A program made the translations under genes and the position numbers. A DNA stretch of 64,000 bases from a virus (taxonomy: Duplodnaviria > Caudoviricetes). Below the pieces are notes generated by a model that saw only the letters and a list, made by a program, of their open reading frames with translations, searched no databases and was not told the origin of the DNA. The stretch lies in the IMG/VR virus record IMGVR_UViG_3300017987_005501; one strand, given 5' to 3'. Of the stretch, positions 4,788 through 38,303 are shown one piece after another. The first letter of the stretch is position 1. The number at the start of each line of letters is the position of its first letter.

Positions 4788-4817
4788 AGTTCACCTTAGT
4801 TTTTCTATATTACTCTT

Positions 4818-6295: not shown

Positions 6296-6304
6296 CTCTT
6301 TTTC

Positions 6305-6670
6305 CTACGTAATATAAAATGATCCAAACTGGATAGTTGAGCTAAGTATTGTTTGGAGGCTATTTATGCATGCCGTCTTTAATCTTAAAACATCAGTGGT
6401 TCCCAGTTTTGTTACATTTCCTTTAAAACTTGAGCCAATAAGGATTTCAACCGAATAGATTTCAATATCAAATCCTAATTCTGTAACTGTTTTTGCATCT
6501 AAGCTAACCTTCCCATATAAAAGGGAATCGGGTGTAAACCTAAAATCTCCTCCGTCAAGGTCTGCCTTAAAAGCCGTTAAAAAAGCCTGGATTGCACCCT
6601 CTGACCCAAAATAAGAATTCCAAGAGGATATATTGCTGGCAGATATTTGTTTTAAAAAAGCATTTACCAT
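6305..6670 (-). CDS. Hypothetical protein
   Basis: 121 aa tiled ORF. Confidence 0.7.
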   Translation of the reverse strand: MVNAFLKQISASNISSWNSYFGSEGAIQAFLTAFKADLDGGDFRFTPDSLLYGKVSLDAKTVTELGFDIEIYSVEILIGSSFKGNVTKLGTTDVLRLKTACINSLQTILSSTIQFGSFYIT

Positions 6671-6672
6671 TA

Positions 6673-7023
6673 TTAAACTCTGGCAACATTGATAACTTGT
6701 AAAGAAGTTTCACTTGTAATCGTGGTTGTTCCAAATATTTGCTGTAAAGCTGCATCCATTGCCGACTCTATGTTAGCTAAGGCTGTAAAATCAATATAAC
6801 TCTGTTCCTGAAAAAGGGCGTCGATAATATTAAAGTGTACTCTAAAAGCAGACTCGCCTTGCCTTAATTCAAGTTCTAATGAAATTTTATTGGGGTCAAT
6901 TTGGAATCCTCTGTTATTTAAAAAATTTGCGATATAGTTTTTCAACCTACGTGCTAAAACTTCGGACGAAGGCCAAAACTGATGATAATAAGGGATATCC
7001 CAATTTTGAACATTAATTTCCAT
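6673..7023 (-). CDS. Hypothetical protein
   Basis: 116 aa tiled ORF after an AT-rich 26-nt gap. Confidence 0.7.
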   Translation of the reverse strand: MEINVQNWDIPYYHQFWPSSEVLARRLKNYIANFLNNRGFQIDPNKISLELELRQGESAFRVHFNIIDALFQEQSYIDFTALANIESAMDAALQQIFGTTTITSETSLQVINVARV

Positions 7024-7049
7024 ATTTATATTTAATGATTAAAAGTATA

Positions 7050-9770
7050 TTAAGGGTTTTTCCAGGTTAAGTTTGCGGGAGCAATGGATTTTAAGGAGAT
7101 AAAGTTCCGGGTATCGTTAAAATAGCATTGACAACCACTAATTATAGCATTTAATTGTTCTTGGGCAACAGTTATGGGCACCTCTCCTAACCAAAAGGGT
7201 CCTTGAATAGAAGCCGAAGAATGAAAACTTGATATTGGGAAAGTTACATCGTAAGTAACCCCACCAGAAGTAAAAATCTGGGTTCCAGCTATTCCGGAAG
7301 CAAGAATATTAAATTCAGTTCCGGCACAAATAATGGGATGAACTTTTTGAATAAAATTCCCCCAGGCTGCCAAAGTATCCCCTGTTCCCAATTGAACTAT
7401 GCCCCCACTATCAAGGTCTAGATTAATAATATTATTCCCATTAATTACCCACGCAGAATTATTACTATCAATATTCAAACCCGAGGCTAGCCCACCACTT
7501 ATATAATAATTTCGATCCAAAATTCCATTTAGATCATACTTATAAACATCAGAAGCTATAGCGAAACAAAGACCAGATGCGTAATGAGTTAGGTCTAACC
7601 CCTTTAAGGCCCCGGATCCTAGCTCCCAACCAGATGCGACCGTTGGGGAAAAGGAGTCAAGAGTAAAAACTAAATTATTTCCGGACCCTGCTTGGTAGGC
7701 AGCGAATAAAGTCCCAGAAATTGGGTGCTGAGTAATGCCCCTATTAATATAACTATTGCCGAAAAAGAAACTTCCAGAAAGGGTATTCTTAAATCCGGAA
7801 GTTATTGCGCCACTTAAAACTCCCCCACCACTAACTAAAGTTAAGGAGAAAGTTTGAGTAGCAGTTTTATATCTTGCAAGCAATGAATCGTAGGGAGCTT
7901 GAGTATTTCTCAAAGCTGCCCACACAGATGAATTTTTAAATAAATCTGCATATAAATAATCACATAGGTACGTTCCGGTATTAATTCTAGAAAGCAGGCT
8001 ACCGCTTCCTCTATAAATTGAAATGGCAGCAGACCCTAAAGGCGAGTTAGCATTTCGTGCAGCCCATAAGAAATTATCATTTGCAGCAAAAGCATTAATC
8101 CCACCCGAAATAAGATCTAAATCAGTAAACCCAGCAGCCAAGTCATTAAACGAAAATTTCTTGATTAGGGACGAATTTGAGGCAACAATCCACTCAGAGG
8201 CACTTGTTGTATCGTAAATACTTGGTTGGAAAGAATCCATAATGGGAATAGTATTAACAATACTTTTTGATTCAACCCCAACTAAATTATAATTTGATGG
8301 GTTTCCTAAATAAAAATCAACAGTATTAGGATAATCCACCACGGTGTGTGCGCCACTTCCAGATAAGCACCCCAAGATACAAGGCCCAGTGGAACAATCT
8401 GTAATTGCAGAAGTAAGGGCACCCGAGGTATCAAACCCCGAACCTGTAAAGCCTGGCCGATCTGAAAGATCTATATTTTCAGTATATAAAACGCTAATAG
8501 GCTGGTCTAGCCCAATATCAATATCAAAATAATCGTTATAACTAAAATCACGAGGGATAGAAACACTGAAATATGAAGCACCGCTATACCAGCTACTAGA
8601 TGGGTCAGTAGCATCATTGTACCAATAAATCTTTACGATTGATCCTGGATATGGGTCTTCGCTATTACCTCGATTTTCGTTTAACTCTATCTCGTAAAAC
8701 CCATCTTTTTGTTGTAGAGCTACTTTATTTCTATAGGGGTAGTTTGTTATATTTGTAAAGTTAGGCGCCGTCTCGTCTATATGCCAAATGAGTAACCCTT
8801 GTGCCGTGTTGCCTGGGGTAGTTGTTGTTAACCCCGGAGCTAGCCCTGCGTCGTAGCCTATCGCTTGACGATACTCTAATAAGAAATACTCATAAGATTT
8901 AGTCGGGTGAGAAATTTTTACTAAAGTCCCACTTGTAAAAGACTTAGGGTCATAGAGGCGAACATTAAAAGTAGATTCGGATATCTCCGTAATTGGATAC
9001 CATCCTCCCTGCGAGCGCGTAAAAGCACTTGGGTAAGATGGGTTTCTTCCACGGACGACGTCATTAGGGGATAACCCCAAAAATTCGCCACTTCCCATAA
9101 TCCCGAAAAACCCAACACCAAAACTTCCGGATATCACGTTTCTCGGGGAAGCTTCTAGGTAGTCAAAACCTAAAGCTTTCCCAAGTTGTTTTGTCAAGCT
9201 CCCATTTAATCTAAAAGTTTCCTGTTCCACCCCCGGAACTGTAATTGTTCCTAGGGTATAAGTTTTAGGAGGTTTTGCCCAATTTAATAGTCTCCATTTC
9301 TCATCAAAACTTGGGTCTATGTATTTGAATTGATCATAGGATAAAGCAGACGTAAAAATAACATAACCATGGTAACCACTCGGCGCCGATGTTGGATTAT
9401 ACAAGGGGTAACCTTGCGAAATAGCATATCCGGAGACTTCGGAAGATAAATCATATGTGCCCGAAGCATAAGCTTGAATATCGTGTAATGCCGTATAAAC
9501 TGTTGGAATTACGTTTGGAGAAAAGCCCGACCCTACCCCTGTAGATAAATTAAACGAATACGATCCTTTGCTTGCATCTTCCCAAAAATCCGTAGCACTC
9601 TTCATCTTCTCGTAAAGATATGTATTATATCCAGAAGATGTTGCATCCGGAAAAGTTGCCCAAGGAGTGGTTACGTAAGGATCGTGGGCTGGAAAAGGCC
9701 CTGTCCCAAACTTGATATCCTGGAATTGAACTTTTATTCCTAGAAGTTTATATGTTCCTGAGACAAACAT
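7050..9770 (-). CDS. M6 (immune inhibitor A)-like metalloprotease-fold protein lacking Zn ligands, with C-terminal beta-propeller-like region
   Basis: M6-type hallmarks GVGFFGIMGSG, EYFLLEYRQAIGYD, GLLIWHIDE, VALQQKDG, RGNSEDPYPG. The HEFGH position reads KQLGK. Confidence 0.75.
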   Translation of the reverse strand: MFVSGTYKLLGIKVQFQDIKFGTGPFPAHDPYVTTPWATFPDATSSGYNTYLYEKMKSATDFWEDASKGSYSFNLSTGVGSGFSPNVIPTVYTALHDIQAYASGTYDLSSEVSGYAISQGYPLYNPTSAPSGYHGYVIFTSALSYDQFKYIDPSFDEKWRLLNWAKPPKTYTLGTITVPGVEQETFRLNGSLTKQLGKALGFDYLEASPRNVISGSFGVGFFGIMGSGEFLGLSPNDVVRGRNPSYPSAFTRSQGGWYPITEISESTFNVRLYDPKSFTSGTLVKISHPTKSYEYFLLEYRQAIGYDAGLAPGLTTTTPGNTAQGLLIWHIDETAPNFTNITNYPYRNKVALQQKDGFYEIELNENRGNSEDPYPGSIVKIYWYNDATDPSSSWYSGASYFSVSIPRDFSYNDYFDIDIGLDQPISVLYTENIDLSDRPGFTGSGFDTSGALTSAITDCSTGPCILGCLSGSGAHTVVDYPNTVDFYLGNPSNYNLVGVESKSIVNTIPIMDSFQPSIYDTTSASEWIVASNSSLIKKFSFNDLAAGFTDLDLISGGINAFAANDNFLWAARNANSPLGSAAISIYRGSGSLLSRINTGTYLCDYLYADLFKNSSVWAALRNTQAPYDSLLARYKTATQTFSLTLVSGGGVLSGAITSGFKNTLSGSFFFGNSYINRGITQHPISGTLFAAYQAGSGNNLVFTLDSFSPTVASGWELGSGALKGLDLTHYASGLCFAIASDVYKYDLNGILDRNYYISGGLASGLNIDSNNSAWVINGNNIINLDLDSGGIVQLGTGDTLAAWGNFIQKVHPIICAGTEFNILASGIAGTQIFTSGGVTYDVTFPISSFHSSASIQGPFWLGEVPITVAQEQLNAIISGCQCYFNDTRNFISLKSIAPANLTWKNP

Positions 9771-11380
9771 TAGTATTTAGAAGCAAAGATTACTGTAAAC
9801 TTTTCTGATGACGGCCTTAAAATTTCTTGTAAGGTAATTACATCGTTAACCTTGTAAAAATATTTCACATTCTTAATAAACTGGGACTTTTCTTCATTTG
9901 GCAATTTTGCCGAAATAATTAGTGTCCCAAATCTCTTTAGGACTTTCTGTAATTGCCCTAAAAACTTACCCTTATCCTTTAATTTAGTATAGGTATTGAA
10001 TGATAAAATTATATCAAAAGGATCATTAATTGGGAAAAGTACGTTATTATTATTAAAATCGTAAATAATTCCAGAGATATCCTTTGTCGAGTATTGGGTC
10101 TTAAAAGATTGATATTGTTCTTTATCTGGACAAACAACCTCAACTGATCTTGGGTTGCTTTTCTCTAAAAGGCTTAATCCAAAAAGAGAATCTGCATCTG
10201 TTAATAAAATTCTTTTTTGCCTTGTAAATAATTTTGAAAGGTTGTATTGATCGTGGAACAGTTGGGCCTCCTCTAATTCGGTATCAACCCTTTGTTCTAT
10301 TATGGCAACCTCCGACCCAGTTTCTTGATTTAGGGTTTCGGCGGTTGGGGTTTCTTGGCGAATTTTAACTAAATTTCCACTTAAGAGCCCCTTATAAACA
10401 TTCTCCCACTGGTAAACGTAATTATGCATACCATAGTTCTGGTAACAAAAATCAAACGCAGATTTCCCGATCTTTTCCCGAATTCCTTTATGATCAATTA
10501 AATATCTTAATTTCTTTTCCCATTCCTGGGTTGTCTTCGCTAAAAGACCAGTTTCACCATCAACAATTATATCTGCATAAGCACCAAAATTTGTAGCAAG
10601 TGTTGGTATCTGCAGCGCAGCATATTCTAAGAACTTAACGTTACTTTTTGATCTATTTAAGTTATTATCTTCAACTGAGATTATCCCGATATCAAAACAT
10701 AGCTGTGAAAGCTTTAGTTGGTAAAACCCATAATGCCCAGGGTGTATATAAATAATTTTGTCCTTGAATTCAGTTAAGAATTCTGGTGGAGCATAACCGA
10801 AAAAATATAAGTGAACATTATTATATTTTTTCATCATTGCCTTCAATGCGGGAAATATCAACATTAAGTCATAATGATGAGTTGGAGAGCCCGCCCAACC
10901 AATTCGAACATCTTTGTGAATGGATTCTGTCCTACGAGGCCAAGTCTCAAAATCAATACAGTTAGGTAAAACTTCTATGTTTTTATTTAGGTTGCCGAGT
11001 CTCTTTTTTAAGAAAGGAGTTGAAACTGTTACAACGTCTGCATTCCGTAGATAAAACTCGAACCTACTTCTAACCTCAGGGTCTTGGTAATAAGTATAGT
11101 CGGGATGGTTTTTTGGGATACTGAATATATCGTCATCTAGGTCGTAAACTATTTTTATTCCCTGGGTCTTTAGAAATTTCCAATACTCGACTATATTCTC
11201 TTGAATATAGTCTCTTTGGAAAACACAAACAGCAGTGGAAGGATCTATCCTATTACGGGTTTCCAACGCAGTTACATTTACATCGTAACCCAACTTTTGC
11301 AAATATTTTGCTGGCTGGGCAACTCTTAAAACTCCGCAACCCCCTGGGTCCCCCTGATAAAAAATTATCTTATTACGCAT
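9770..11380 (-). CDS. GT-B (GT4-like) glycosyltransferase fused to degenerate class I methyltransferase-like domain
   Basis: GCGVLRVAQP, YDLDDD, IGWAGSPTHHYDL, FDIGI...NRSKSNVKFLEY. C-terminal FDIILSFN...FLGQLQKVLKRFGTLIIS. Confidence 0.85.
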   Translation of the reverse strand: MRNKIIFYQGDPGGCGVLRVAQPAKYLQKLGYDVNVTALETRNRIDPSTAVCVFQRDYIQENIVEYWKFLKTQGIKIVYDLDDDIFSIPKNHPDYTYYQDPEVRSRFEFYLRNADVVTVSTPFLKKRLGNLNKNIEVLPNCIDFETWPRRTESIHKDVRIGWAGSPTHHYDLMLIFPALKAMMKKYNNVHLYFFGYAPPEFLTEFKDKIIYIHPGHYGFYQLKLSQLCFDIGIISVEDNNLNRSKSNVKFLEYAALQIPTLATNFGAYADIIVDGETGLLAKTTQEWEKKLRYLIDHKGIREKIGKSAFDFCYQNYGMHNYVYQWENVYKGLLSGNLVKIRQETPTAETLNQETGSEVAIIEQRVDTELEEAQLFHDQYNLSKLFTRQKRILLTDADSLFGLSLLEKSNPRSVEVVCPDKEQYQSFKTQYSTKDISGIIYDFNNNNVLFPINDPFDIILSFNTYTKLKDKGKFLGQLQKVLKRFGTLIISAKLPNEEKSQFIKNVKYFYKVNDVITLQEILRPSSEKFTVIFASKY

Positions 11381-12134
11381 TTTCTTCTGTTATAAAAGGC
11401 TGGTATAAAGTTTTTCGATCTCTGACAACTTGGCTATTTAAAATTAGTCCTTGCTGTAATAATTCTAATTTCTGCGGCTCTGAGTAAACACTATTAAAAG
11501 GAATATCAGAAATATATTCTAAGCTCTCTGCAATGTCTATAATTTTTATTTTTTCTGGGGTTTGGTTATTTAAGTCGCAAGGGTAACCTAACCCGGCTAA
11601 ACTAATTCTCTCTGTCCACTCTGAATGTTCAAACCCATATTTTCCATAGTTAGCATTAAATCCCCCCACTCGCTCTAAAATCTTTTTAGTGAAAGTAAGG
11701 AAACTTCCCATCATTTGGTTATGGAAAGAAATTTTTACACCCCTGATTGTTTCAACCTTAACTAAATTAATTCCTAGCTGCCCGCCCATAAAACCAAAAT
11801 GGTGGTATGGGGATTTAAACATTGCATTCACGTATTTGCGAACCCAACCAGGCTTATTAAATTTTACATCATCGTTAATTAAAAAACCATAGTCAACATT
11901 TCTTAATAAACTTAAAGCGCGGTTTGAATTTCTTGCAACTCCAACATTTTTTCTTCCTAATATAGAAATTATATCTTTTTGTTGTTTTAACCACTCCGCA
12001 GTCCCGTCTGTGGAAGCATCGTCAGCCACAATAATTTTTGATAATAAAAAAGCATCCGTTTGACGGATGCTGTTAATACATTGTATTAGACAATCTTTTC
12101 TATTGTATGTTATGATCCCTAGCCCGATTTCCAT
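11373..12134 (-). CDS. GT-A (GT2-family) glycosyltransferase
   Basis: GIITYNR, IIVADDASTDGT, NVGVARNSN, FLINDDV, GGFNANYGKYGFEHSEW. Confidence 0.9.
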   Translation of the reverse strand: MEIGLGIITYNRKDCLIQCINSIRQTDAFLLSKIIVADDASTDGTAEWLKQQKDIISILGRKNVGVARNSNRALSLLRNVDYGFLINDDVKFNKPGWVRKYVNAMFKSPYHHFGFMGGQLGINLVKVETIRGVKISFHNQMMGSFLTFTKKILERVGGFNANYGKYGFEHSEWTERISLAGLGYPCDLNNQTPEKIKIIDIAESLEYISDIPFNSVYSEPQKLELLQQGLILNSQVVRDRKTLYQPFITEENA

Positions 12135-12139
12135 AACTA

Positions 12140-12496
12140 TTATCCAATCTTTTCATAAACATAATCCCATGTTCCTGTTTCGTAGTTATATTTATCGACC
12201 TTATATCCTAAAGTAGGGTAGATTTGTTTAGAATCTTCATCCCCAATAAGACGACTAAGAACTGGGTCGGGGTCCTGTTCTCTATAAAAATCCCAAATCT
12301 TTAACCAATCACCTTCGTGAACGAAATGCCTTACTTGGGAAGGGGCAAGAAACATCATCTTTGCTGGATCTGCTACTGGCCTTCCATCCGTGTCTGTTTC
12401 TATAGCACTAAAAAATAGAATTTCACTTACATGATCATATTTTACTGTTGAATCTATATGCAAAAACCGTAAGGAAGACTTAAGATCTATCGTCAT
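12140..12496 (-). CDS. Hypothetical protein
   Basis: 118 aa, TAATG coupled. Confidence 0.7.
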   Translation of the reverse strand: MTIDLKSSLRFLHIDSTVKYDHVSEILFFSAIETDTDGRPVADPAKMMFLAPSQVRHFVHEGDWLKIWDFYREQDPDPVLSRLIGDEDSKQIYPTLGYKVDKYNYETGTWDYVYEKIG

Positions 12497-13077
12497 TAGT
12501 TTAACCCTTTCTCCAGGTCTTGGATAAGATCTACATCTTTTATATTTAATGCACTTAAAATTTTCTTTGCCCTTGTTTCTTCTAAAGCCCAGCTCCTAAA
12601 AGCCGCCGCCTCCCTTTCTGCTTCGGGTTCGGAAGCCCCATAGGTTGCGTGGGCAGCTTCATGGATCATTGTTTCGGCTATATAAATAATAGCGAAAAAC
12701 TTCCAAATATCCCCAGAATACAGTTTCTTTGCTTCCTGCAAAATTCGATTTACATTAATACCAAAGCTGACCCCAAAGACATTATGACCTAACTCCTCTA
12801 GGTCCTTTTCTTTATACTGTAATTTACTCGCCAGTTCCTCTTTTACCTTCATTGAATGTTTAGGGTCATAAACTCCATAGGCACCGCTACCTAAATTATA
12901 TTCTGTTATAATATTTCTAAATAAACTTTTATCGTCAGAATAGTGGGTGCCATCATAATCTAGAGCAAGCTCATGACTTATTTCGGCTTCTCGGAACTTT
13001 GACTTGAGTTCGCTGATGTCGACCCTTCTTCTCGCTCCCAAGGAAGAAGGGTCGACTTGCAAAGCTTCTCTTTTCAT
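12496..13077 (-). CDS. Small zincin (gluzincin-like) metallopeptidase
   Basis: TMIHEAAH (12649-12663) on a hydrophobic helix, followed by a Glu-rich helix SEPEAEREA. Confidence 0.65.
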   Translation of the reverse strand: MKREALQVDPSSLGARRRVDISELKSKFREAEISHELALDYDGTHYSDDKSLFRNIITEYNLGSGAYGVYDPKHSMKVKEELASKLQYKEKDLEELGHNVFGVSFGINVNRILQEAKKLYSGDIWKFFAIIYIAETMIHEAAHATYGASEPEAEREAAAFRSWALEETRAKKILSALNIKDVDLIQDLEKGLN

Positions 13078-15746
13078 TACTCTTCTTCCTCTGTTTCTTC
13101 AGTTTCTCCCATTTTTCCCTCTTCTGGGATACCACCATAAGCTTTCATTAGGGCATCAAAAGCTTTCATTGCACGTTCGTCTGTGCTATGGCTCTTCCCC
13201 TTCTTATAGAGGTCTTCTAAAATCTTAGTAAGCTCTGTTGCGGCACTCATTAGAGGTGGGGCATCAACTTCCCTAATAACTTTAAGATCGTGATGATAGC
13301 CCTTTCCTAACATTTCCTCATAAATAAACCGGAAGATAAACATTGCTAAGGCACCGTGCCGACCAGAAATATTTGCTTTGTCCGATCCCGGCATATTGTA
13401 AGACCCAGTGACGTATTTTTTAATTTCATCTGGGGTTAAATTATGTGCCGCATGGGCATCTCCACCCTCTTCTTTCTTTGCATCCAAAACCTTAGAGAAT
13501 TGGAGAAGGTCTCTATCAAGATCAAACTTATATAAAGTTTTAATCTTTTTAACCGCCCCGGATTCTAATTCTTTTAACTTTGGCTCTCTCGTCTCAACAT
13601 TCATCTTCTTAGCAAGATCCCCACCACAAGAGGCACAATCTAAATCCAACAATGCCTTCATCTCAGACTTACACTCTGGGCAAATATATGTTTGGGTTTT
13701 AGCATCATATAATTTATCTGCCTTTTGTTTGCTTTCTCTAAAACCACAAGAAGAACATTGAATAATATCCCGTGGAGCTTGTCGCATCCCACAGTCTTCA
13801 CATTCCCAGGACTCTGCACTTTTCCCGGCTTCTTCTGCAAAATCACCCTTTTCAGTTTTCTTTAATTTTCTCTTTTGAAACTCGATTTCATAGGAATTGG
13901 GGCGGTCAGAATGCCAAACATTGCTTCCCTCTTTTCTCCAGACTAAATAGTCGCCTAAGTCGTCCTTAAAGATAGCATAGGAAGCAATAGGCATCTTAGT
14001 AATACCAGCCTTTGCGATATTTGGGTGCCCCGAAGTATTAGATATATTAAGATTCCTTAAATTAGGATCATCAATCCGAAGTTGGTGATCCTTTAAGCCT
14101 AGGTTATCTAACATATCTTGGTAATTCGTGACTTCTGTAACAGACTCGGGAATTCCTGTCAGGGGAGTGACCCTTGAGGGTGCCGCAGAAAGGGCATTAA
14201 TGCCACCTAACGGAATAAAGGTTGAATCTTGGGATTCTCGAGGTGCCGCTTGTGGCCCCTGCTTTCTCTTTCCAGGAAGATCTCGTGTTGTTTTTGTTAC
14301 GTGGTGAATGTTTGACAAGTTTTCTACATCATAACGTCCCCCAGTGTTATAAACCAGGCAAGACCTAATAAAGTCTTCGAGATTAACAATGTTAATTACC
14401 TCTTCCTTTTCCCCTCTTTGCATAATAACCAAACCATTAAGGAGGGTTTTAACCCAATCTAATAGAACATTATGGGAAATATTATATTTGGCATTTCCCG
14501 ACTTGGGAAGCTGGAATTGAATATTGGTAAGGGCCCTAAGCTTTTGTAAGGTTTTTGGCCCAGCAGGGGCGATCCCATGCTCTTGAATTACCCGGACAAA
14601 ATGTTGAAGGTAGTTAAATAAATGCTTGTTAATATCAACATATTCTGTTTGATGTTGTTCGTTATAATTCGTTTCTAAATTATTAATTCTTTTTTCTAAA
14701 ACCTTAAAAGCATCAGTCTCGGGTTCTTCGTCGGTCCCCGCATCTAGAAGAAGTTCCTGGTAATCCTCTATCTCTTCCGCCAGTTCGTTTAACTTATGAG
14801 CTGATAATTCCCCACCATGCTTATTTAAGAACGCAATCTCTTTATTTAAGTTTTGGATCATGGGGTCAGTTTCACTGACTCCGGCAGCATCGAATTTAAT
14901 AAGAAGATCGTTCAATTTTCCAGCAATTCTTTTAACCCGAAGATGCTCTAAAGTCTCATGTAATAGATTTTTAATATGGTCTTCTTTTTCTTCATCCTTT
15001 GGTTCTAAATTAACCCCAAGGATGTCTGCTTTTCGCTCAAGGTCCAAACCAGTTCCGTTACTCATAGTAACCTTAACTTCAACCTCACCGGAATCCGTAG
15101 GAACTTTTCCACTAATTACTTGGTGCCCCCCGCTAGAGCTTAATTGGAACATGGGCAATGCTGTAGCATCTAATATTTTAACCAAACCATTTCGGGCTTT
15201 ACTGGATAAGTCGTCTCCAATAATTCCGCTGAGTGTTTCTTTTAGATACTTAGCAAAATCTGTTTTATGTGTTCTATCCAGGAGTCTTTTGACAACTAAT
15301 TTTCTAGCAGATTCGCGTTCCTTATCTGTAACTGGTTCCGAAGGCTCCCTACCTGCTTTCTTTCTTTTGACTCGGACTAGAGCATCAACTTCCCGATTAA
15401 GGGCTTTTTCTAGGGTGGGGTATCTTCTAGCATTTTCCAATAGAGCTAACTCTTGTTGGTTAAACTTTCTAACCTTAATATTTTCCTCAGATATAGACTT
15501 AAAGGGTTCGTTGAGTTGGTGATTTGCTTTTGCGACGGCATCTTGCAAATCTGTCATGAAGGTACCAAGACGAACTGCTTTACCATTTTTCATGATATAA
15601 AGAGGAGCCGATTCAACAGTCCCAATATCGCTTTTGAGGATTTCATGCTCTTCCCCACTATGGCTGGTAAAAGCTGCAGTTTTAATATTTCTGCCAATAG
15701 CCTTTAGCTGTTTAATATATCCCCGATACTTCTTTTTATCCATCAT
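13077..15746 (-). CDS. Large hypothetical charged protein with four CxxC (double Zn ribbon)
   Basis: 889 aa; CEDC, CSSC, CPEC, CASC clustered near 13625-13805; acidic tail ETEETEEEE. Confidence 0.8.
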   Translation of the reverse strand: MMDKKKYRGYIKQLKAIGRNIKTAAFTSHSGEEHEILKSDIGTVESAPLYIMKNGKAVRLGTFMTDLQDAVAKANHQLNEPFKSISEENIKVRKFNQQELALLENARRYPTLEKALNREVDALVRVKRKKAGREPSEPVTDKERESARKLVVKRLLDRTHKTDFAKYLKETLSGIIGDDLSSKARNGLVKILDATALPMFQLSSSGGHQVISGKVPTDSGEVEVKVTMSNGTGLDLERKADILGVNLEPKDEEKEDHIKNLLHETLEHLRVKRIAGKLNDLLIKFDAAGVSETDPMIQNLNKEIAFLNKHGGELSAHKLNELAEEIEDYQELLLDAGTDEEPETDAFKVLEKRINNLETNYNEQHQTEYVDINKHLFNYLQHFVRVIQEHGIAPAGPKTLQKLRALTNIQFQLPKSGNAKYNISHNVLLDWVKTLLNGLVIMQRGEKEEVINIVNLEDFIRSCLVYNTGGRYDVENLSNIHHVTKTTRDLPGKRKQGPQAAPRESQDSTFIPLGGINALSAAPSRVTPLTGIPESVTEVTNYQDMLDNLGLKDHQLRIDDPNLRNLNISNTSGHPNIAKAGITKMPIASYAIFKDDLGDYLVWRKEGSNVWHSDRPNSYEIEFQKRKLKKTEKGDFAEEAGKSAESWECEDCGMRQAPRDIIQCSSCGFRESKQKADKLYDAKTQTYICPECKSEMKALLDLDCASCGGDLAKKMNVETREPKLKELESGAVKKIKTLYKFDLDRDLLQFSKVLDAKKEEGGDAHAAHNLTPDEIKKYVTGSYNMPGSDKANISGRHGALAMFIFRFIYEEMLGKGYHHDLKVIREVDAPPLMSAATELTKILEDLYKKGKSHSTDERAMKAFDALMKAYGGIPEEGKMGETEETEEEE

Positions 15747-16818
15747 TGATTAACTCCCGGTAAATTTTAAGTCTTTTTTCTGCTTGAGTATATGAATTAT
15801 AATTTTCCCTTGCTAAATTATAACCGTTATTTTGGATTTCTTTTCTTAAACTTGCTTTTTTAATTAAGTTTTCTAATGCTTTCTTCCAATCTTTTTTTCC
15901 CGCACAAAGGAACCCCACATTTTTACGTCTTAGGGTCTTTGAATAATTTTCAACATCTGATGCAATTACTGCAGTTTTCAGTGCCATATATTCAATAGAT
16001 TTTAAATTGCTTTTACTTCGATTAAATACATTATCCACTAATGGCGCAACACCAATATCTAAATCTAAAAAATGCAATAACGGCAGATACTTATCAACAT
16101 CCACCCCTTCTATCATGAAAAATCTATCTTTCGGGGCCTTTTTTGCTAGAAAATCTAACGTGTATCCGATATGAAAGAGTTTAGTAGTAGAATATTTCGA
16201 CAAAATCCCCAAAAGAAGATCTTGAATCAAGGCCAGATCATGATGGTGAGTGGGTGACCCTCCCCAACCAATATGAATATAACCATCAGCTTTGCTTTTG
16301 ATAATTTCTTCTCTTGTTAACGCAGACTTTCCGCGTTTTGGATCTACCTTATAAGCTACTCGAAGAGGATTTCCCCCTTGTTCAAGTTTATCAATTATAT
16401 CGAAATTAATCCCATTCTCTAAGACATAAATATTAGGATTATATTTTAAGTATTGATTTTTAAGGTATTCTGTTGAAACTATTAGAGCATCTGCGTTTTT
16501 AATAAACCAAAGCCATTTTTCCTTATTTTCTTGAAACCATTTTGCTGTTGGATTCCAGCTAGGTAAATTAAAATAATCGTCATCCGCTTCATAAATTACT
16601 GGCTTTTTTTTCTCTTTTGCTAATTTCAGCCAAGGCCGTACTTCATCCTTATATTGCTTTTGCATAATTATAAGATCTGCCCAATCTAGGGCTTCTTCGC
16701 TGTAAGCTGTTTGAATTCGGGCAACAACCCCAGGGTATTTATTTAAGGCAAGAGATGGGACAGCAGCTCGATAGTAACCACAACCATCGAACCCTGAAAT
16801 AAAAGTTAAAATATTCAT
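15736..16818 (-). CDS. GT-B (GT4-like) glycosyltransferase
   Basis: GCGYYRAAVP, YEADDDY, IGWGGSPTHHHDL, LDIGVAPLVDNVFNRSKSNLKSIEY; paralog of 9770-11380. Confidence 0.88.
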   Translation of the reverse strand: MNILTFISGFDGCGYYRAAVPSLALNKYPGVVARIQTAYSEEALDWADLIIMQKQYKDEVRPWLKLAKEKKKPVIYEADDDYFNLPSWNPTAKWFQENKEKWLWFIKNADALIVSTEYLKNQYLKYNPNIYVLENGINFDIIDKLEQGGNPLRVAYKVDPKRGKSALTREEIIKSKADGYIHIGWGGSPTHHHDLALIQDLLLGILSKYSTTKLFHIGYTLDFLAKKAPKDRFFMIEGVDVDKYLPLLHFLDLDIGVAPLVDNVFNRSKSNLKSIEYMALKTAVIASDVENYSKTLRRKNVGFLCAGKKDWKKALENLIKKASLRKEIQNNGYNLARENYNSYTQAEKRLKIYRELINDG

Positions 16819-16825
16819 TTGTTAT

Positions 16826-17413
16826 TTAGGCAAACTGGATTACAATTTTTGCTGGATCAATAGTTCCAGAAGGGTCGAAAACTGTAATAGTTGCTAAAAC
16901 AGTTTCGGGGACACTTTTAACCTTAAAGCTAGCCTTACCCTTTTTTAATTTTACCTTTAAGTTTGATAATTTACCACGGGAAGTTTCAATAATTAATTCT
17001 TCGTTATCGGAATCTTTTGCGCAGGGGTCCCCTCCAAGGAAAGATTTTTGGATATAGATGGTGGCTTCTGAAACGCCATTAGCAGGAATATCAGGATACC
17101 CATCATATGGTTGGACAGTATCCCGGGCATCGGTTGTCAAAATTAAAATGGGTTTTAGTTTTCTCTCAATCCCATTTCTAAGCTTATTAACCCTAAAATC
17201 CCCCTGTTTCTTCATTAATTCAAAGTTATCAGGAACAATCAAAAAGTCTGTTTTCTTCTTTGGGATCCCCCAATAAGCATAGCACTCTTTAGGCAAATTC
17301 GTTTTTTGCGGTTCGAGAGAATTCCCTTTTTGGTCTTGCATGCTAGAATGAAAGGCTATTATGTCGTGTCGTTTATATTTATCGTGATCCTCAGTTGCAA
17401 AAACAACTAACAT
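16826..17413 (-). CDS. Putative virion accessory protein with Big-1/invasin-like Ig domain
   Basis: C-terminal IPANGVSEATIYI...KGKASFKVKS pattern. Confidence 0.5.
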   Translation of the reverse strand: MLVVFATEDHDKYKRHDIIAFHSSMQDQKGNSLEPQKTNLPKECYAYWGIPKKKTDFLIVPDNFELMKKQGDFRVNKLRNGIERKLKPILILTTDARDTVQPYDGYPDIPANGVSEATIYIQKSFLGGDPCAKDSDNEELIIETSRGKLSNLKVKLKKGKASFKVKSVPETVLATITVFDPSGTIDPAKIVIQFA

Positions 17414-17424
17414 ATCTACATCTC

Positions 17425-18597
17425 CTATAGAGTTCCGCCGGATACTTCCGGACGGCTTATATCATATCCATCTTTCCAAATATAGGATGGATCGCTTGTT
17501 GGTATTGAATCCGGGCTAACAAAAGCTGTGGAATAATAATTTTGCCACCCAGCCTTTTTTAATAATACTTGGAAATTGAGGTAAGCTCTAAAATACGAAG
17601 GCTCTGTTTTTATATAGGAAGGAGACCTAAACCATAATATTCCTTGGTCATTTAACTCCCATACAAACCTTGAATCCAAAGTACCTGTGGCGAATGTAAA
17701 GTCAGGGATACCCCCAACTGCCCCAATAAGCCTTATATATGGTTTAGCCCCTAAAAAAGTACTTGAAAGGCCACTTAATAAAGTGCCATCGGGGAACTTA
17801 AAATTACTAACAGAAAGTCCTCTATATTCCCCGGTAACATCCGCAGAAGAAACCCCTAATGTAGTTCCTGACCATATATCAAAAGTACCGCTTACGCGGA
17901 ATAAAGTAAGGTTTGCTGGGACGCCGAGAACAACCTGAAAAATTCCAAATTCCACAGCATTATCTAATACGTACCCTTGTAGAAGAGGACCAAACCCCCC
18001 AGAGGCATCTATCTGGTTTGTTGCTTTAATGTTAGTCCCACTAATATTTCCGGAAACATTTACATTTGCTGCTGCATTTATATCGCCAGTAACATTTAAG
18101 GCTTTCGTAAGATTTAAGTTCGTAATAATATTTCCGTTAAATGAAACATCATCGTCGAAAATAGAGTGCCCTTCAAAAGTGGCCCCGTCTGAAAAAGTCG
18201 AATGGTCATTAACAGATAAGGCGCCACTAACATCTAAGTTTTGGCTAATTGTTGTCTTTCCAGTATAGTCAATCTTAAAACCAGTTGCATTGAATTGATC
18301 TGCTGCGGAATTATTAATAATTTCAACAACGGGGGCAGTAGCACTAATATTAGATCTCTCAACGACAAGAACTTTTCCGGTCCCAGTTCCTAGAAAATAA
18401 CCAGCTCTTCCGCTTCCTGCAGTTCTAACTTGAAGGCTATCTAGAGCCGAGGAGATGTTTGTTTTATCTATAATGAGGCCATTAGTATCCGGCGATCCCG
18501 TGTAATGCCCATTTGGGTTGGCATCCGTAATAGTGTCCCCACCATTATTCCGGACATAAAAGTCCCCCACTTGATCTCTTTGGACTGGTTGCACCAT
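17425..18597 (-). CDS. Putative tail fibre/spike protein (trimeric beta-helix repeats)
   Basis: Central short repeats VSGALSVND-HSTFSDG-ATFEG-HSIFDDD-VSFNGN...LNVTGDINAAANVNVSGNISG. Confidence 0.65.
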   Translation of the reverse strand: MVQPVQRDQVGDFYVRNNGGDTITDANPNGHYTGSPDTNGLIIDKTNISSALDSLQVRTAGSGRAGYFLGTGTGKVLVVERSNISATAPVVEIINNSAADQFNATGFKIDYTGKTTISQNLDVSGALSVNDHSTFSDGATFEGHSIFDDDVSFNGNIITNLNLTKALNVTGDINAAANVNVSGNISGTNIKATNQIDASGGFGPLLQGYVLDNAVEFGIFQVVLGVPANLTLFRVSGTFDIWSGTTLGVSSADVTGEYRGLSVSNFKFPDGTLLSGLSSTFLGAKPYIRLIGAVGGIPDFTFATGTLDSRFVWELNDQGILWFRSPSYIKTEPSYFRAYLNFQVLLKKAGWQNYYSTAFVSPDSIPTSDPSYIWKDGYDISRPEVSGGTL

Positions 18598-18609
18598 TTT
18601 ATATTTCCT

Positions 18610-19170
18610 TTAACCAAGCCTTTTCATGCTAAAAGTAACTGTACAAGCTACATCCAAGTCCCCCCCAGAGTCGTTAGATAGACCGAGGCTTAAAACTGTT
18701 GAAGCAGATATTTCTCTTACGAGCTTTAAGGACATAAAGAAAGGGTCAGCAGTCGGCGTAAGGACCCTTGTTAGTAGAGGGGTCCAAAGGCCGTCAGAAA
18801 TTGTATAAATTCCTATTGTATAATTTCCAGAATCTGGGGTAGATGCGTCATAAATATCAGCATAAATTTCATAAACACCTTGTCGCTGGACTTCAATATA
18901 TCCACTTTCGTCTGTTACAAGAGAGGCACCGTCGGCAGAAACATCGACTCCTTCGGCGACTACAACTTCAGAAGTACCGCCCCAGTCAGGAGCGCCGGTT
19001 GTCCCGCTGCCTGGAAAAGTTTGAAGCCCAGTATATTGGTTTGCCCAATACCCTCCCTGGGCTGTAGCAATTAAATCCCTTGTATCTTGCGCAGAAATAT
19101 TTCCTGAAGAATTATTTGCAAATAAACTTTCTAGTTCTGACCGGGTTCTTTCGTTTTCTGTCGTTCCCAT
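18610..19170 (-). CDS. Putative fibre protein with C1q/TNF/BclA-C-like trimeric head
   Basis: N-terminal LFANNSSGNISAQDTRDLI, C-terminal SGYIEVQRQGVYEIYADI beta-sandwich pattern. Confidence 0.55.
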   Translation of the reverse strand: MGTTENERTRSELESLFANNSSGNISAQDTRDLIATAQGGYWANQYTGLQTFPGSGTTGAPDWGGTSEVVVAEGVDVSADGASLVTDESGYIEVQRQGVYEIYADIYDASTPDSGNYTIGIYTISDGLWTPLLTRVLTPTADPFFMSLKLVREISASTVLSLGLSNDSGGDLDVACTVTFSMKRLG

Positions 19171-19185
19171 ATTTATTTATCCTTT

Positions 19186-22100
19186 TTAACTAAAAGCAGA
19201 ACTAAAGGAAGAGCCGAATGATCCTGTTATGGTTCCCCCTGATCCTGTTCCTGCAGAAGAATCAAATATTCTGATAGGAATTGGCAATCCTAATTCATCG
19301 TCTTCGTAATTTGCGTAAGCATAACAATATACACCGCTTACATTATACATATCCGCCCTAACGCCTAACAAAGAAGCATCCCCAATAGTATACTTAATTG
19401 GGTAAACCTGGAAATTATATGCTCCAGAAACCATGCTATAAGTGAATTCCCTTCTGAAAACTTCGTCGTGGTGTGAAGGGAATAAGGTATTGGGTTGTTC
19501 TAAGACAGGTTTTCTTAGAGCTAACGTAAACGGACTTGTCCCGGAACTAAGATAAAATGACCCTGACCCAAACCTAGTGCCAGAGAAGTAAAGGTTAGTC
19601 TTATTATTTAGCCAATCAATTTCAACATGCATTAAAGTTCTATTTAAGTTATAATCAATATCCACCGGTCTAAAGATTCCCATCCAATCAGAATGATTTG
19701 CAAGATAAGAGGAAGACCCGGGATCCCCATAGTCCGAACAATATAGCATTACCCAATTTCTATTATGAATCCCACCCCCACTTCCTAAGGATGGGTCTGC
19801 TATAATACTAGCTGTGTTTGAAATCCCTGATTTCGTCATTCTCTCGATATTTGTTGGAATTACATCGCTACCGGCACTATTAAAAGTTGCTACGAAGCCC
19901 CGAGGGATGCTTGATAAGGCTCCACCGCCATTATCCGCTACGGATAACCCAGAAGGCCCCCCTTGCCCAGCTAAGGCAGGAACATTAAATTCAAGCGTTG
20001 GAGAAGGGCTTAAAGGATTTATTGTTAAAGCAGCACTTGAGTAAAATATGGAATTACCGCTGGCAGGTATAAAAGTAGTGAGCGGTTCTTTTGTTTCGCT
20101 ATCTCTACCATCAAAGGTATGCCTAATATCTAAAATAACTGTAGTTGTTCCATTAGCAGCACCCGAAGCCGAATTTATAAAATCCTCATCAATAAAATAT
20201 TCTTGAGCTGTAATGATTGTTTTATTTTGTTTTAGGTCCCTAGTGATATTAACCTTTGAGGTGTCTAGGTTATACCGAATTTCCCCCCGATTTCTGCCAT
20301 ATAAGGTACTAAGATAATCTGCAGAATGAAGGAAATAATCTTTGGTAAAGAATCTAGCAGTTGCCTCCCTTTGCCAATCCCCATTCCAAATCCTATTGCA
20401 TGTCCAATCTTCGTCATAATAATCAAATAGATAGAAACGTGGCCAAGTTGGATTAAATGGCAAGACATTTGCAGCCCCAACCACTATTGGGTTTGCGCTT
20501 CCAAAATTTCGATCATCAAGCGACCCGCCACTGCTAGCGAAAGTGTCCGACCAACGAACTTCACTTAGTGTTGGAACAATATCCTTTCTGTCCGTATTAC
20601 TTCTAATTGCTAATTGATATCCAGAAGAAGCAAAGTTAGACCCAGAAGCATGCCTTTGGAAGTTTTTAGAGGATAAACTAAAAGAATCATTAGTTAATAA
20701 GTAGGTCTTGTTACTAACCAAGTCAACGCGAATAGCGGGATCATATAATCCTATAATTCCCGCAGAACTCCAAGGATGACGATATCCTGAATTCTGGAAA
20801 GCAAAAGCAACTGTTCTTTGAATATGAGGTAATATATGAGGAATAAATTCATACCCCATCCAATCTTCTCTATGATTCGCATACATTCGAACAATCGGGC
20901 CCTCAGCCCAAGGAGGATATGCATATCCTCGCGAATCCGTGGAGAAGGGAGAGAAGTAAGGCATAATCTGGCTTCTGTCCTCCGCAGGAACCACTCCCGA
21001 AAAACGGGTGATTGGAGAATAATATGCATGATTCGGGTCGTAAGGAAGCATAGTCCCAGACCCAATAATCATCGCTTTTTTAAGTTCAAGCGGATGATTA
21101 AACGTATCCCTCCAAACTTCTGCAGTATCTGGGGTAACCCCCGAATTTGCATCAAGTAGAAGATGCCGCAAACTTAAGTCTAGGGGATAGGCCCCTGGGT
21201 AATACCCAGAAGCACCTGATACTTTATAACGACCAAATCCACTTGCAGTCGAATGTAAATAGGTATGGTTATTCCAAAGGTCAATTGTTATGCCAGTATT
21301 TCTAACATCAATAATATCTCTAACAGTACTGGCCTTTCCAATAAAGGTAGAACCACTTACCGCGGCCCGCAATAGCGGGACAAAGGTCCCCAAACTACTT
21401 TGGGTTATATTGCAATCATAAGATGGGTTATTAATAGCTGTGATATAAACAAACCCATGAGACCGAGTGCTAAATCCGGGGTAATACCTTTGAGAAGCAG
21501 GCACGAATCTAAAAAGCTTAGCATTTCCTAGATGAAAGTCTTTTCCATTTAGGATATTTCCATTAGTAAAGGTAAAACGCTTATTTTCAACGTAGTCGTA
21601 TGTTAAGCCAGTCTTATCAGGGGAAGAGAAAACAAAGGTTTGAGGGAATGTTCCTCCCCAAGTTCCAAAGGAGCTTCTAATCCTTGATTCGTTCCCGGGA
21701 AGATCAATATCAACTGAAACAAGAGCCACGTTAGTGTTAGGTACAGTAGAGACTGAAATGAAATCTTGTGGGAACGTTGGGCCATAAGTTATATCCTTTG
21801 GAGCTGTTACATAAGCACTGCAAGGATTATACATTAAAGCCTGATAATATCTTCCTGGGGTAAATGTAAAGTCGGGAAGTCTCCATGTGGTGCAATTTAC
21901 ACTATCGGGCTCTTCACAAACTTTCGCAAATACTACTTGTTGATAACCCGTGTCTGGGGTTGTCTCAACAACATAGAAAGAAATTGGGCTTGAAATTAAA
22001 GGATGAAGCAACCTACCAATATAAATTAGGCAATCTCCATTATGCCCCCGGTAGAAAGTAATTTGATCTGTTCTTAGAGGCTCTATATTTTTTATATCCC

Positions 22101-22755
22101 CCAAGATCGATGGAATATTATTCTCAGCAAATTTTGGAGGAGAAGTTGGTAAAGTTAAGCTTGTTAGATAATTAAGTAATGCTGGTTGACCCCTTTTTTC
22201 AGAAAGTAAATGAACCAAAGGTTTATTTGACTCTAGAAAGTGATTCCCCAGAATATTTTCTGAAACAGGATAGGTAATAATTGGTTCGTTACTTGTTTGT
22301 GCCCCAATTGTTATATCTACCGGAGACTCAGGAACACAGTCACAAGGCCAATCCAATCCTTTAAGATAAACAGGATCAAAATTTCCAACGAGAGGAATAT
22401 TATCATCGCTGATGAATGGGAGATACCAGGGCCAACAAGATACTGTTTTAATAGTCCCTTCAGAGTTGCTTACCTCTACGAGGACAGGAAGATCCTTAGA
22501 ATTCCTAAAGAAATCAAGAGAAACCCCATCCCAAAATTTTGGATTGGGTAAGTAGGCAGAAGGTAATGTTGATCCCGAAGCTACTGGGAATACCTGGGCA
22601 TTCACATCATCTAAATCAGAGTAAACTGCTTGAACATACTCATTATTTAGGGTATTTGTTATTTTAACAGTAAGCGGGGTACTTCCCGTAAACGTATTAG
22701 GGGGTACGTATAGTTTAAAAAACTTGCTTAATGATAATTGTTCTTGCGTAGCCAT
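19186..22755 (-). CDS. Large putative virion structural / receptor-binding protein, Ser-Gly rich
   Basis: 1189 aa, beta-rich S/T/G/P composition, within the fibre cluster. Confidence 0.65.
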   Translation of the reverse strand: MATQEQLSLSKFFKLYVPPNTFTGSTPLTVKITNTLNNEYVQAVYSDLDDVNAQVFPVASGSTLPSAYLPNPKFWDGVSLDFFRNSKDLPVLVEVSNSEGTIKTVSCWPWYLPFISDDNIPLVGNFDPVYLKGLDWPCDCVPESPVDITIGAQTSNEPIITYPVSENILGNHFLESNKPLVHLLSEKRGQPALLNYLTSLTLPTSPPKFAENNIPSILGDIKNIEPLRTDQITFYRGHNGDCLIYIGRLLHPLISSPISFYVVETTPDTGYQQVVFAKVCEEPDSVNCTTWRLPDFTFTPGRYYQALMYNPCSAYVTAPKDITYGPTFPQDFISVSTVPNTNVALVSVDIDLPGNESRIRSSFGTWGGTFPQTFVFSSPDKTGLTYDYVENKRFTFTNGNILNGKDFHLGNAKLFRFVPASQRYYPGFSTRSHGFVYITAINNPSYDCNITQSSLGTFVPLLRAAVSGSTFIGKASTVRDIIDVRNTGITIDLWNNHTYLHSTASGFGRYKVSGASGYYPGAYPLDLSLRHLLLDANSGVTPDTAEVWRDTFNHPLELKKAMIIGSGTMLPYDPNHAYYSPITRFSGVVPAEDRSQIMPYFSPFSTDSRGYAYPPWAEGPIVRMYANHREDWMGYEFIPHILPHIQRTVAFAFQNSGYRHPWSSAGIIGLYDPAIRVDLVSNKTYLLTNDSFSLSSKNFQRHASGSNFASSGYQLAIRSNTDRKDIVPTLSEVRWSDTFASSGGSLDDRNFGSANPIVVGAANVLPFNPTWPRFYLFDYYDEDWTCNRIWNGDWQREATARFFTKDYFLHSADYLSTLYGRNRGEIRYNLDTSKVNITRDLKQNKTIITAQEYFIDEDFINSASGAANGTTTVILDIRHTFDGRDSETKEPLTTFIPASGNSIFYSSAALTINPLSPSPTLEFNVPALAGQGGPSGLSVADNGGGALSSIPRGFVATFNSAGSDVIPTNIERMTKSGISNTASIIADPSLGSGGGIHNRNWVMLYCSDYGDPGSSSYLANHSDWMGIFRPVDIDYNLNRTLMHVEIDWLNNKTNLYFSGTRFGSGSFYLSSGTSPFTLALRKPVLEQPNTLFPSHHDEVFRREFTYSMVSGAYNFQVYPIKYTIGDASLLGVRADMYNVSGVYCYAYANYEDDELGLPIPIRIFDSSAGTGSGGTITGSFGSSFSSAFS

Positions 22756-38115: not shown

Positions 38116-38132
38116 TATTAATCTCCATGTCC

Positions 38133-38303
38133 TTATAAATTTTCATTGTATGGAAGACGGTTTTTTCTCCAAACATGGGAGAATAAAACGTCTTTTAGCA
38201 TAGAAGTCTTTTTAGAAGTCCTTCTTTGTTTATTTGCTAAACTCTTATGTTTTTTTTGGATTAAGTTGTAATTAGTGCTTTTTAGGTTCGGACGCTTATT
38301 CAT
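38133..38303 (-). CDS. Small basic hypothetical protein (56 aa), uncertain
   Basis: GGAG 6 nt before the ATG at 38303. Its stop TAA is followed by GGA, as at other real junctions; K/R-rich. Confidence 0.4.
   Translation of the reverse strand: MNKRPNLKSTNYNLIQKKHKSLANKQRRTSKKTSMLKDVLFSHVWRKNRLPYNENL
38154..38194. other. 17-bp imperfect hairpin (2 mismatches, 7-nt loop)
   Basis: AAGACGgTTTtTTCTCC-aaacatg-GGAGAAtAAAaCGTCTT read directly. Confidence 0.6.

Follow-up and report, generated by a model that had tools for sequence, protein, structure and literature searches.

What do three glycosyltransferases (GTs) modify when they are encoded between the fibre genes and the replication genes of a jumbo phage? 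We addressed this question in a 64,000-nucleotide (nt) stretch of DNA (IMG/VR record IMGVR_UViG_3300017987_005501), hereafter called the window, from an uncultured jumbo phage of which eight contigs, up to 283.5 kb in length, have been recorded. The three GT genes belong to a six-gene cassette, and an earlier note on this DNA had proposed that these enzymes build a multi-step O-glycan on tail or capsid proteins. Among the readings that we weighed, the building of a glycan on virion proteins by cytoplasmic phage GTs is the best supported; whether it is right we cannot tell. We hold glycosylation of virion proteins to be the leading reading, with a chance that we put somewhat short of even.

The glycosyltransferase cassette and its surroundings

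The presence of three GT genes, two of type GT4 and one of type GT2, all in the same orientation on the minus strand, was borne out by Pfam scores above the gathering cut-off and by strong PHROG matches. In order, the cassette encodes a GT4 of 360 amino acids (aa), an 889-aa protein, a 193-aa zincin, a 118-aa protein, the GT2 (253 aa) and a 536-aa fusion of a GT4 to a methyltransferase-like domain (GT4-MT). The first cassette gene (15736..16818) specifies a soluble, basic enzyme of the GT4 type, a family of retaining GTs, and GT-B fold (PF00534, 29.0 bits against a cut-off of 26.4; phrog_7162, 7.6e-45), with an isoelectric point (pI) of 9.2, no transmembrane segment and 97 homologues. Its AlphaFold2 model (predicted local distance difference test [pLDDT] score of 92.1 and predicted template modelling [pTM] score of 0.90) has the two Rossmann domains of a GT-B fold. 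MshA, GlgM and BshA are its best Foldseek matches (E 1e-14 to 1e-12); taken together with PglA and WaaG they span E values of 1e-14 to 1e-10 at a template modelling (TM) score of about 0.65-0.70. SdgB and TarM stand lower among the matches, and PimA is also a structural neighbour. Of the C-terminal EX7E nucleotide-sugar motif, only E276 is nearly invariant in 22 orthologues, with no Glu eight positions further along; the conserved block FNRSKSN..K..E resembles PF13524-type members.

The GT2 gene (11373..12134) encodes a soluble enzyme of GT-A fold, from a family of inverting GTs (PF00535, 56.8 bits against a cut-off of 23.3; PF02709, 23.5 bits; phrog_2456, 1e-32) without a transmembrane segment, in whose translation the motifs DDAS (residues 38-41) and NDD (residues 87-89) can be read. 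In GT4-MT (9770..11380; PF00534, 33.5 bits against a cut-off of 26.4; phrog_7162, 2.2e-45), the GT4 part (residues 1-335) is followed by a C-terminal Rossmann methyltransferase-like domain (about residues 390-536). This domain scores below the methyltransferase cut-offs (PF13847, 20.8 bits against 27; PF08241, 18.8 bits against 21.2), and its S-adenosylmethionine loop, which reads DADSLFG here and NVRNPFG in the orthologue of a related phage (locus L001), is degenerate relative to GxGxG. The fold is probably kept, and the activity is uncertain. Other members of the GT4 family carry the methyltransferase at the N terminus instead of the C terminus, and the GT-methyltransferase fusion has therefore arisen more than once. 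The two GT4 genes are paralogous to each other, with 29% identity (E 9e-43). All three GTs lack hydrophobic segments and have pI values between 8.4 and 9.2. The translational coupling that the earlier note had described is there: at 9770, the stop codon of the GT4-MT gene overlaps the ATG of a gene for a 906-aa protein (TAATG).

Every gene in the window lies on the minus strand, and the genes are tightly packed. In the direction of transcription, a baseplate/fibre module is followed by large acidic proteins, a 195-aa protein, the six-gene cassette, the 906-aa protein, four small genes and an SNF2-family helicase. The cassette sits exactly where the fibre module gives way to the replication module. 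Throughout the fibre genes and the cassette, neighbouring genes overlap by 1-11 bases or are separated by gaps of at most 30 bases, which we count in favour of glycosylation of virion proteins; we count likewise the observation that soluble, mildly basic GTs without transmembrane segments adjoin strongly acidic fibre-like proteins. The GTs had been described as interleaved with virion proteins, which overstated the arrangement: they form one cassette, and the 889-, 193- and 118-aa genes inside it are Lys/Glu-rich or acidic, not fibre-like.

Relatives in IMG/VR were found by a profile scan, a scan with a single protein having returned nothing; a megablast search of the region against 50,697 phage records gave no close DNA relatives. 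L001 keeps the cassette order and five of the six genes, at 35-57% identity; there too, fibre genes lie on one side and an SNF2 helicase on the other, with the flanking fibres swapped. The L001 block consists of a GT4, a large Lys-rich protein, a zincin, a 119-aa protein, an extra 103-aa gene, a GT2 and a GT4-MT, and its orthologues are 57% (GT4), 49% (GT2) and 47% (GT4-MT, full length) identical to those of the window. The cassette is thus found in the fibre module of two related phages, a further point for virion glycosylation. More distant jumbo relatives (GT4 at 35-38% identity, with a similarly diverged helicase) have the GT4 orthologue as the only member of the cassette. In L003, L005 and L006, the neighbourhood of the GT4 orthologue includes an orthologue of the SNF2 helicase, which in L006 (18156-21077) is split by an intein with a LAGLIDADG endonuclease domain. 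In these same three loci, the GT4 orthologue (GT at 10001-11200) follows the primase, downstream of the SNF2 helicase. Compared with the jumbo relatives, the GT4 has been relocated in the window, where it has its place at the end of the fibre genes, upstream of the helicase, and has been joined by the GT2, GT4-MT and the zincin.

Of the remaining cassette genes, the one for the 889-aa protein (13077..15746), whose start overlaps the stop codon of the 360-aa GT4, encodes a Lys/Glu-rich product with two Cys4 zinc-ribbon motifs. Searches of Atlas, Pfam and PHROGs gave no usable match for it, the Atlas model being poor and a match to DUF7129 weak; its positional counterpart in L001 has 1136 aa, with marginal similarity only. 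The 193-aa protein (12496..13077) has an intact HEAAH and weak fold and feature matches to zincin families. A word-indexed homologue search with it returned only itself, and the L001 cassette contains a 215-aa homologue (L001 14492-15139; 35% identity, E 2e-29) in which the HEXXH is kept. Conserved in the cassette of both phages, the zincin could have another cassette product or a fibre protein as its substrate. The acidic 118-aa protein (12140..12496), which has no family match, is also a conserved cassette member: L001 has a homologue of 36% identity in the corresponding place.

The modules on either side can be recognized by a few families. The baseplate/fibre module includes a Baseplate_J protein (40749-45896), a BW3TFN-like protein (37525-38115) and a DUF4815 protein (28786-33561). 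It also contains, between the BW3TFN-like protein and a 1170-aa fibre-like protein, a 144-aa retropepsin-like aspartyl protease (37109-37543) with weak matches to PF13975 and PF05618. The SNF2-family helicase (2970..4787; phrog_62, 1e-68) begins the replication module and marks the boundary outside the cassette; DnaB, a primase-like protein and a topoisomerase are encoded past the window start. Downstream of the helicase, a 154-aa protein (897-1361) has a precomputed match to the MqsA antitoxin family. A scan for promoters and terminators was uninformative, with counts that did not exceed the shuffle expectation. Three apparent intergenic gaps on the minus strand (2756-2970, 38115-38383 and 48554-48829) open with the same ribosome-binding block, AAATGGAGAA..ATATG, and encode short Cys-rich, zinc-ribbon-like peptides below the 80-aa cut-off for open reading frames (ORFs); since they hold these small ORFs, the gaps do not define operon borders.

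An excess of Ser-Gly in the fibre-like proteins

Downstream of the baseplate genes lie acidic, Ser/Gly/Thr-rich proteins of 1364, 262, 1189, 186 and 390 aa without a known family, and the 906-aa protein follows the cassette. We counted Ser-Gly (SG) dipeptides in such proteins against the expectation from 1000 shuffles of each protein. The excess is strongest in the 906-aa protein (31 versus 10.7 expected, z 6.8), whose C-terminal half, which has no relatives, holds most of the sites (21 versus 6.2 expected). It is also marked in the 1189-aa protein (23 versus 9.3, z 5.1) and is weaker in the proteins of 390 aa (9 versus 4.3), 186 aa (5 versus 2.3), 1364 aa, 1591 aa and 889 aa, the last a cassette protein that is not fibre-like (9 versus 3.3). 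Pooled over nine fibre-like proteins, SG occurs 127 times against 63.4 expected, an observed/expected ratio (O/E) of 2.0, while every other X-Gly or Ser-X dipeptide has an O/E of 0.27-1.47 (TG 1.11, GS 1.13). The Ser-Gly richness to which the earlier note had drawn attention is therefore a true excess, at the level of protein and specific to Ser. The Baseplate_J protein showed no SG excess in the shuffle test. A 966-aa protein of the structural module (53169-56069) is depleted of SG (1 versus 6.8 expected, with 11 Gly-Ser), the opposite of the distal fibre proteins.

Several origins of the excess were considered and rejected. A cause at the DNA level is ruled out by the mixed codons used for both Ser and Gly at the SG sites and by TG, AG and PG, which are equivalent at the codon boundary and have ratios of about 1.0-1.1. 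Internal repeats are ruled out as well, the 906-, 1189-, 1364- and 1591-aa proteins having no off-diagonal self-matches. Nor is the excess a general trait of fibres or of the M6 peptidase fold found in the 906-aa protein: pooled baseplate and fibre proteins of T4 have an O/E of 0.99, pooled fibres and spikes of phi92 one of 0.90, and in the 126 bacterial members of the family of the 906-aa protein, where SG and GS are equally frequent, the ratio has its median at 1.28 and reaches 2.0 at most, compared with 3.0 for the window protein. We count the confinement of the excess to distal fibre-like proteins, and its elevation above T4 fibres, phi92 fibres and the 126 homologues, in favour of virion glycosylation. 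The surroundings of the SG sites are notable only for Ala at -1 and for Trp, Phe or Ile at +2/+3, and contain no strong longer motif. An extended sequon of the form T-x-S-G or [ST]-G-x-T is ruled out, Thr being enriched at neither -2 nor +2.

Between fibre proteins of the window and their orthologues in L001 (42-48% identity), 6 of 18 SG sites are shared and 10 are new in L001, and the sites are no better conserved than overall identity predicts. The number of sites is upheld, and the excess persists between orthologues, while positions drift, which we also count in favour of virion glycosylation. A more specific proposal is that SG is an acceptor tag: the cassette GTs would O-glycosylate Ser at x-Ser-Gly sites scattered over the distal fibre proteins, among them the 906-aa protein as a receptor-binding protein with a dead M6 domain; selection would then keep the number of sites high and let their positions drift. 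We regard this specific proposal as doubtful. The more probable account, to which we give about an even chance, is that structure or composition accounts for the excess independently of the GTs, for example through a preferred tight-turn dipeptide of beta-rich distal-fibre folds, and that the cassette merely abuts these genes. The lack of a strong extended motif, the enrichment of the non-fibre 889-aa protein, the normal fibres of phi92 in spite of its GT homologues and the modest excess in L001, where the same cassette goes with a pooled O/E of only about 1.5 and one protein at z 3.3, all point that way. What a structural origin explains less readily is that other turn-forming dipeptides (NG, DG, PG and TG) are not enriched, that T4 fibres, phi92 fibres and the 126 M6 homologues have no comparable excess or SG>GS asymmetry, that internal repeats are absent and that the sites are conserved no better than the rest of the protein.

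The expectation in the earlier note that GT presence should track SG enrichment gave a mixed result. It agrees with the ratios of 2.0 here and 1.5 in L001, which has the same cassette, and with the lower values of 1.27 and 1.03 where only the GT4 orthologue is present; phi92, at 0.90 despite its GT homologues, does not follow. With T4 at 0.99, the comparison comprises six genomes, two of them close relatives, which are too few and too related for a decision. The analogy drawn with the xylosylation of Ser-Gly in eukaryotic proteins found no support. The Ser-Gly excess is real and unusual; any link between it and the GTs is speculative.

The proteins that flank the cassette had been taken for virion components. 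This stands as a suggestion only, made by their composition, their position and one N-terminal domain that is shared. The domain is that of the 390-aa fibre protein (17425..18597), in which a conserved, anchor-like N terminus precedes a variable C terminus: residues 3-199 match the N termini of three different L001 proteins (533, 878 and 846 aa; the coordinates of the three in L001 are 3113-5749, 5760-8300 and 8348-9949). By this alignment, the N-terminal 200 residues would be a shared anchor domain on which the distal parts have been swapped; weak matches of the protein to beta-solenoids (Bactofilin and FapA) were also found. The acidic 1189-aa protein (19186..22755; pI 5.4), rich in Ser, Gly and Thr and fibre-like, has no Pfam, PHROG or PDB sequence match and no homologue in L001, and the acidic, fibre-like 186-aa protein (18610..19170; pI 4.05) has no family match. 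Directly upstream of the cassette, a basic 195-aa protein (16826..17413; pI 8.9) has neither a family match nor an L001 homologue.

The 906-aa protein (7050..9770) is acidic and without a signal peptide, and its N-terminal 430 residues form an M6 (InhA-like) metallopeptidase domain, as indicated by Atlas feature and structure matches to Peptidase_M6. Its 764 homologues match about residues 190-400 only. Where 13 homologues have HE[LMFTI]GH, the window protein aligns KQLGK, and the next block, PDLYD, has become F-DYLE. With the HEXXH replaced and the Asp-containing block altered, we therefore take the protein for a catalytically dead protease of M6-like fold. The dead domain has plausibly been reused as a fibre or binding module.

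Candidate targets of the glycosyltransferases

Further evidence speaks for the virion as the target. The closest small-phage relatives of the GT4 adjoin genes for the major capsid protein, an SU10 head-tail adaptor, a prohead protease and head closure, together with GT2 and methyltransferase genes, and we count this genomic company, and the association of GTs with methyltransferases, in favour of virion glycosylation. There is also precedent. The GT2 matches GTs of 560 mycobacteriophage records, the best being Myrna gp234 (27.5% identity over 95% of the length), and virion proteins of Myrna, Che8 and Corndog are glycosylated according to PMC12363180, which cites Freeman 2023. XacN1, also a jumbo phage, encodes two GTs, and its virion contains at least two glycoproteins (PMC5852040). 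On the likeliest reading, the six-gene cassette would be a cytoplasmic, late-expressed glycosylation module. It would draw on nucleotide sugars of the host (or made elsewhere by the phage) and would place a short O-linked glycan, possibly methyl-capped, on the outward-facing virion proteins of the phage itself. The glycan would be added before or during assembly, in the manner of actinobacteriophages on their capsid and tail-tube subunits.

A number of observations weigh against glycosylation of virion proteins. The analysis shows the enzymes and their solubility, the conservation and position of the cassette and the Ser-Gly excess; the acceptor, the glycan, the timing and any role of Ser-Gly in attachment are what we infer, and an acceptor that is only inferred counts against it. 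On the structural model, the GT4 fold is generic, common to GTs that act on small molecules, lipids, polysaccharides and proteins, and the acceptor is not readable from it. BLASTP searches with the window GT2 against Che8 gp109 and gp110 and with the window GT4 against gp108 gave no significant match. Che8 gp108-110 are reportedly the enzymes for which a requirement was found by experiment, Che8 gp110 and Corndog gp38 being said to be needed for capsid glycosylation. The 906-aa gene, with the highest Ser-Gly excess, is missing from L001, where a collagen-like gene on the other strand takes its place, and phi92 is a counter-example, with GT homologues and no SG excess. Gene neighbourhoods are a further difficulty. 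In the distant jumbo relatives, the GT4 comes after DnaB/primase and is followed by a nucleoside diphosphate (NDP)-sugar epimerase, a nucleotidyltransferase and an aminotransferase or by larger sugar clusters, and about 20 of 80 IMG/VR loci are T4-like, with the GT between SbcC-like and PolB genes. When 86 related loci were sorted by clusters of marker genes, at least 12 were in head modules, 26 in replication modules and 48 unassigned; the 26 replication-module loci, often with sugar-nucleotide genes close by, count here too. Since the cassette in the window is only about 5 kb from the helicase, its apparent membership of the fibre module could be an effect of the nearby boundary.

It is conceivable that the soluble GTs work instead on the inner side of the membrane, take lipid-linked or other glycan intermediates of the host (lipopolysaccharide [LPS], capsule or cell-wall polymers) as their acceptors and so alter the surface of the infected cell, with superinfection exclusion or avoidance of progeny re-adsorption as possible outcomes. 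The structural neighbours WaaG, PimA, PglA and TarM of the GT4 do act on lipid-linked or wall polymers, and PHROGs places both GT families in the class of moron, auxiliary metabolic gene and host takeover. In relatives, the GT can stand beside genes for an epimerase, a DegT aminotransferase, an acetyltransferase and a GT9, much as in surface-polysaccharide loci, and the authors of a cyanophage genome paper favoured remodelling of the envelope for similar gene sets (PMC12801897). Against this, neither the cassette nor its vicinity encodes a flippase, a polymerase, an undecaprenyl-phosphate transferase or a membrane segment, placement in a head or fibre module is a poor fit with an early role in host takeover, and the phage is a jumbo phage of the lytic type. 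We consider a role at the host envelope unlikely here.

Phage DNA is the remaining target that we weighed: the GTs could add a mono- to trisaccharide to a hydroxylated base as an anti-restriction hypermodification. Several clustered GTs would fit a di- or trisaccharide, the 26 GT4 orthologues in replication modules are in keeping with such a role, and one relative has a gene of the thymidylate-synthase family about 10 kb away. Phage DNA GTs have, moreover, been recruited from GT-A and GT-B enzymes of the LPS and teichoic-acid types and can adjoin structural genes (bioRxiv 10.1101/2023.12.21.572611). The same work found that intact DNA-hypermodification pathways usually cluster, and here partners are lacking, as the earlier note had observed: among ORFs of at least 80 aa from 2970 to 59549, there is no hydroxymethylase, kinase, thymidylate-synthase (ThyS) homologue, dioxygenase or sugar-nucleotide enzyme, and none of these occurs among the precomputed Pfam families of the 10 kb past the window start. 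In particular, neither the window nor those next 10 kb contain a ThyS homologue, a 5-methylpyrimidine dioxygenase (5mYOX) or a cytosine methyltransferase; the absence of a base-hydroxylating enzyme covers about 74 kb of the 283-kb genome. The alpha- and beta-GTs of T4 are absent among the 50 best fold matches of the GT4. Evidence from outside the window comes from phi92, whose gp163 and gp164 (GT-B) and gp165 (GT-A) are homologues of all three window GTs. The BASEL study found phi92-like phages "exceptionally susceptible" to restriction-modification despite their "putative dTDP glycosylation machinery" (PMC8594841). The sensitivity of phages with a homologous enzyme set therefore argues against DNA as its target and is counted for the virion reading, and we judge DNA glycosylation to be somewhat less probable still than action on the envelope. 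The chance that is left beyond virion, envelope and DNA falls to other targets.

To our knowledge, no more than a few mycobacteriophages have so far been shown to encode glycosylation of their own virions, which shields the particles from antibodies. If the cassette coats tail fibres, and does so in a marine jumbo phage, such glycosylation would be known from another phage lineage as well, and from organelles that bind receptors, with a bearing on host recognition, particle stability and evasion of grazing or immunity. Homologues of all three GTs occur together in phi92-like phages of E. coli, which are cultured, genetically accessible and restriction-sensitive and could serve as a tractable proxy for finding the target of the GT set. 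Should Ser-Gly prove to be the acceptor tag, it would be a dipeptide sequon for phage-encoded virion glycosylation outside the actinobacteriophages, and an excess of it, if read by an enzyme, would offer a simple way to predict from metagenomic sequence which phage proteins are modified.

Comparison with known systems

SdgA and SdgB are GT4 enzymes that attach O-linked N-acetylglucosamine to the Ser-Asp dipeptide repeats of staphylococcal adhesins. SdgB (PDB 7ec1 and 7vfn) has its GT4 fold among the structural neighbours of the window GT4; with it, there is precedent for the reading of a Ser-X dipeptide on a surface adhesin by an enzyme of this type. Its structures rank 35th or lower and have an extra domain, and the acceptor is a long, low-complexity Ser-Asp repeat, not dispersed Ser-Gly. 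A second parallel is drawn from architecture and not from sequence: A064R of Chlorovirus PBCV-1 is arranged as GT-GT-methyltransferase, and the GT-methyltransferase fusion in the window would similarly cap a glycan. In both cases, cytoplasmic GTs encoded by the virus itself would glycosylate a virion protein without recourse to the machinery of the host; PBCV-1 differs in being a eukaryotic virus with N-linked glycans on its major capsid protein (capsid glycosylation in this virus is mentioned in PMC5852040).

The phage pathways that glycosylate DNA, namely, the T4 alpha- and beta-GTs, clusters linked to methyltransferase, 5mYOX or ThyS genes (bioRxiv 10.1101/2023.12.21.572611) and the arabinosyl-5-hydroxycytosine (5hoC) pathway (PMC13326640), resemble the cassette in having several GT-A and GT-B enzymes in one cluster, and in relatives the orthologues of the window GTs lie within replication modules. 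They differ in that no pathway for a hydroxylated base was found near the cassette, and the homologous set of phi92-like phages gives no protection from restriction (PMC8594841). The gp163-gp166 cluster of phi92 (and of other Stephanstirmvirinae) resembles the cassette in having two paralogous GT-B enzymes and a GT-A enzyme homologous to GT4, GT4-MT and GT2; a DNA polymerase gene is close by, and about 10 kb separate the cluster from the end of the tail-fibre module. It differs in that identity is only 27-29%, the methyltransferase fusion, the zincin and the 889-aa gene are not part of it, and the phi92 fibres have no Ser-Gly excess.

The model for action on the virion is provided by actinobacteriophages such as Che8, Corndog and Myrna. 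Phage-encoded soluble GTs, often accompanied by a methyltransferase, reportedly modify the structural proteins of these phages in the cytoplasm (Freeman et al. 2023, as cited in PMC12363180, PMC12619734 and PMC13313380), and the known acceptors are the C termini of capsid and tail-tube subunits, not fibres. The window phage, whose system is known from genes alone, would not have an actinobacterium as its host, its GTs are not similar to Che8 gp108-110, and its zincin, 889-aa and 118-aa proteins have no counterpart in those phages. The likeness extends to the window GT2, which is homologous to Myrna gp234 and to hundreds of mycobacteriophage GTs.

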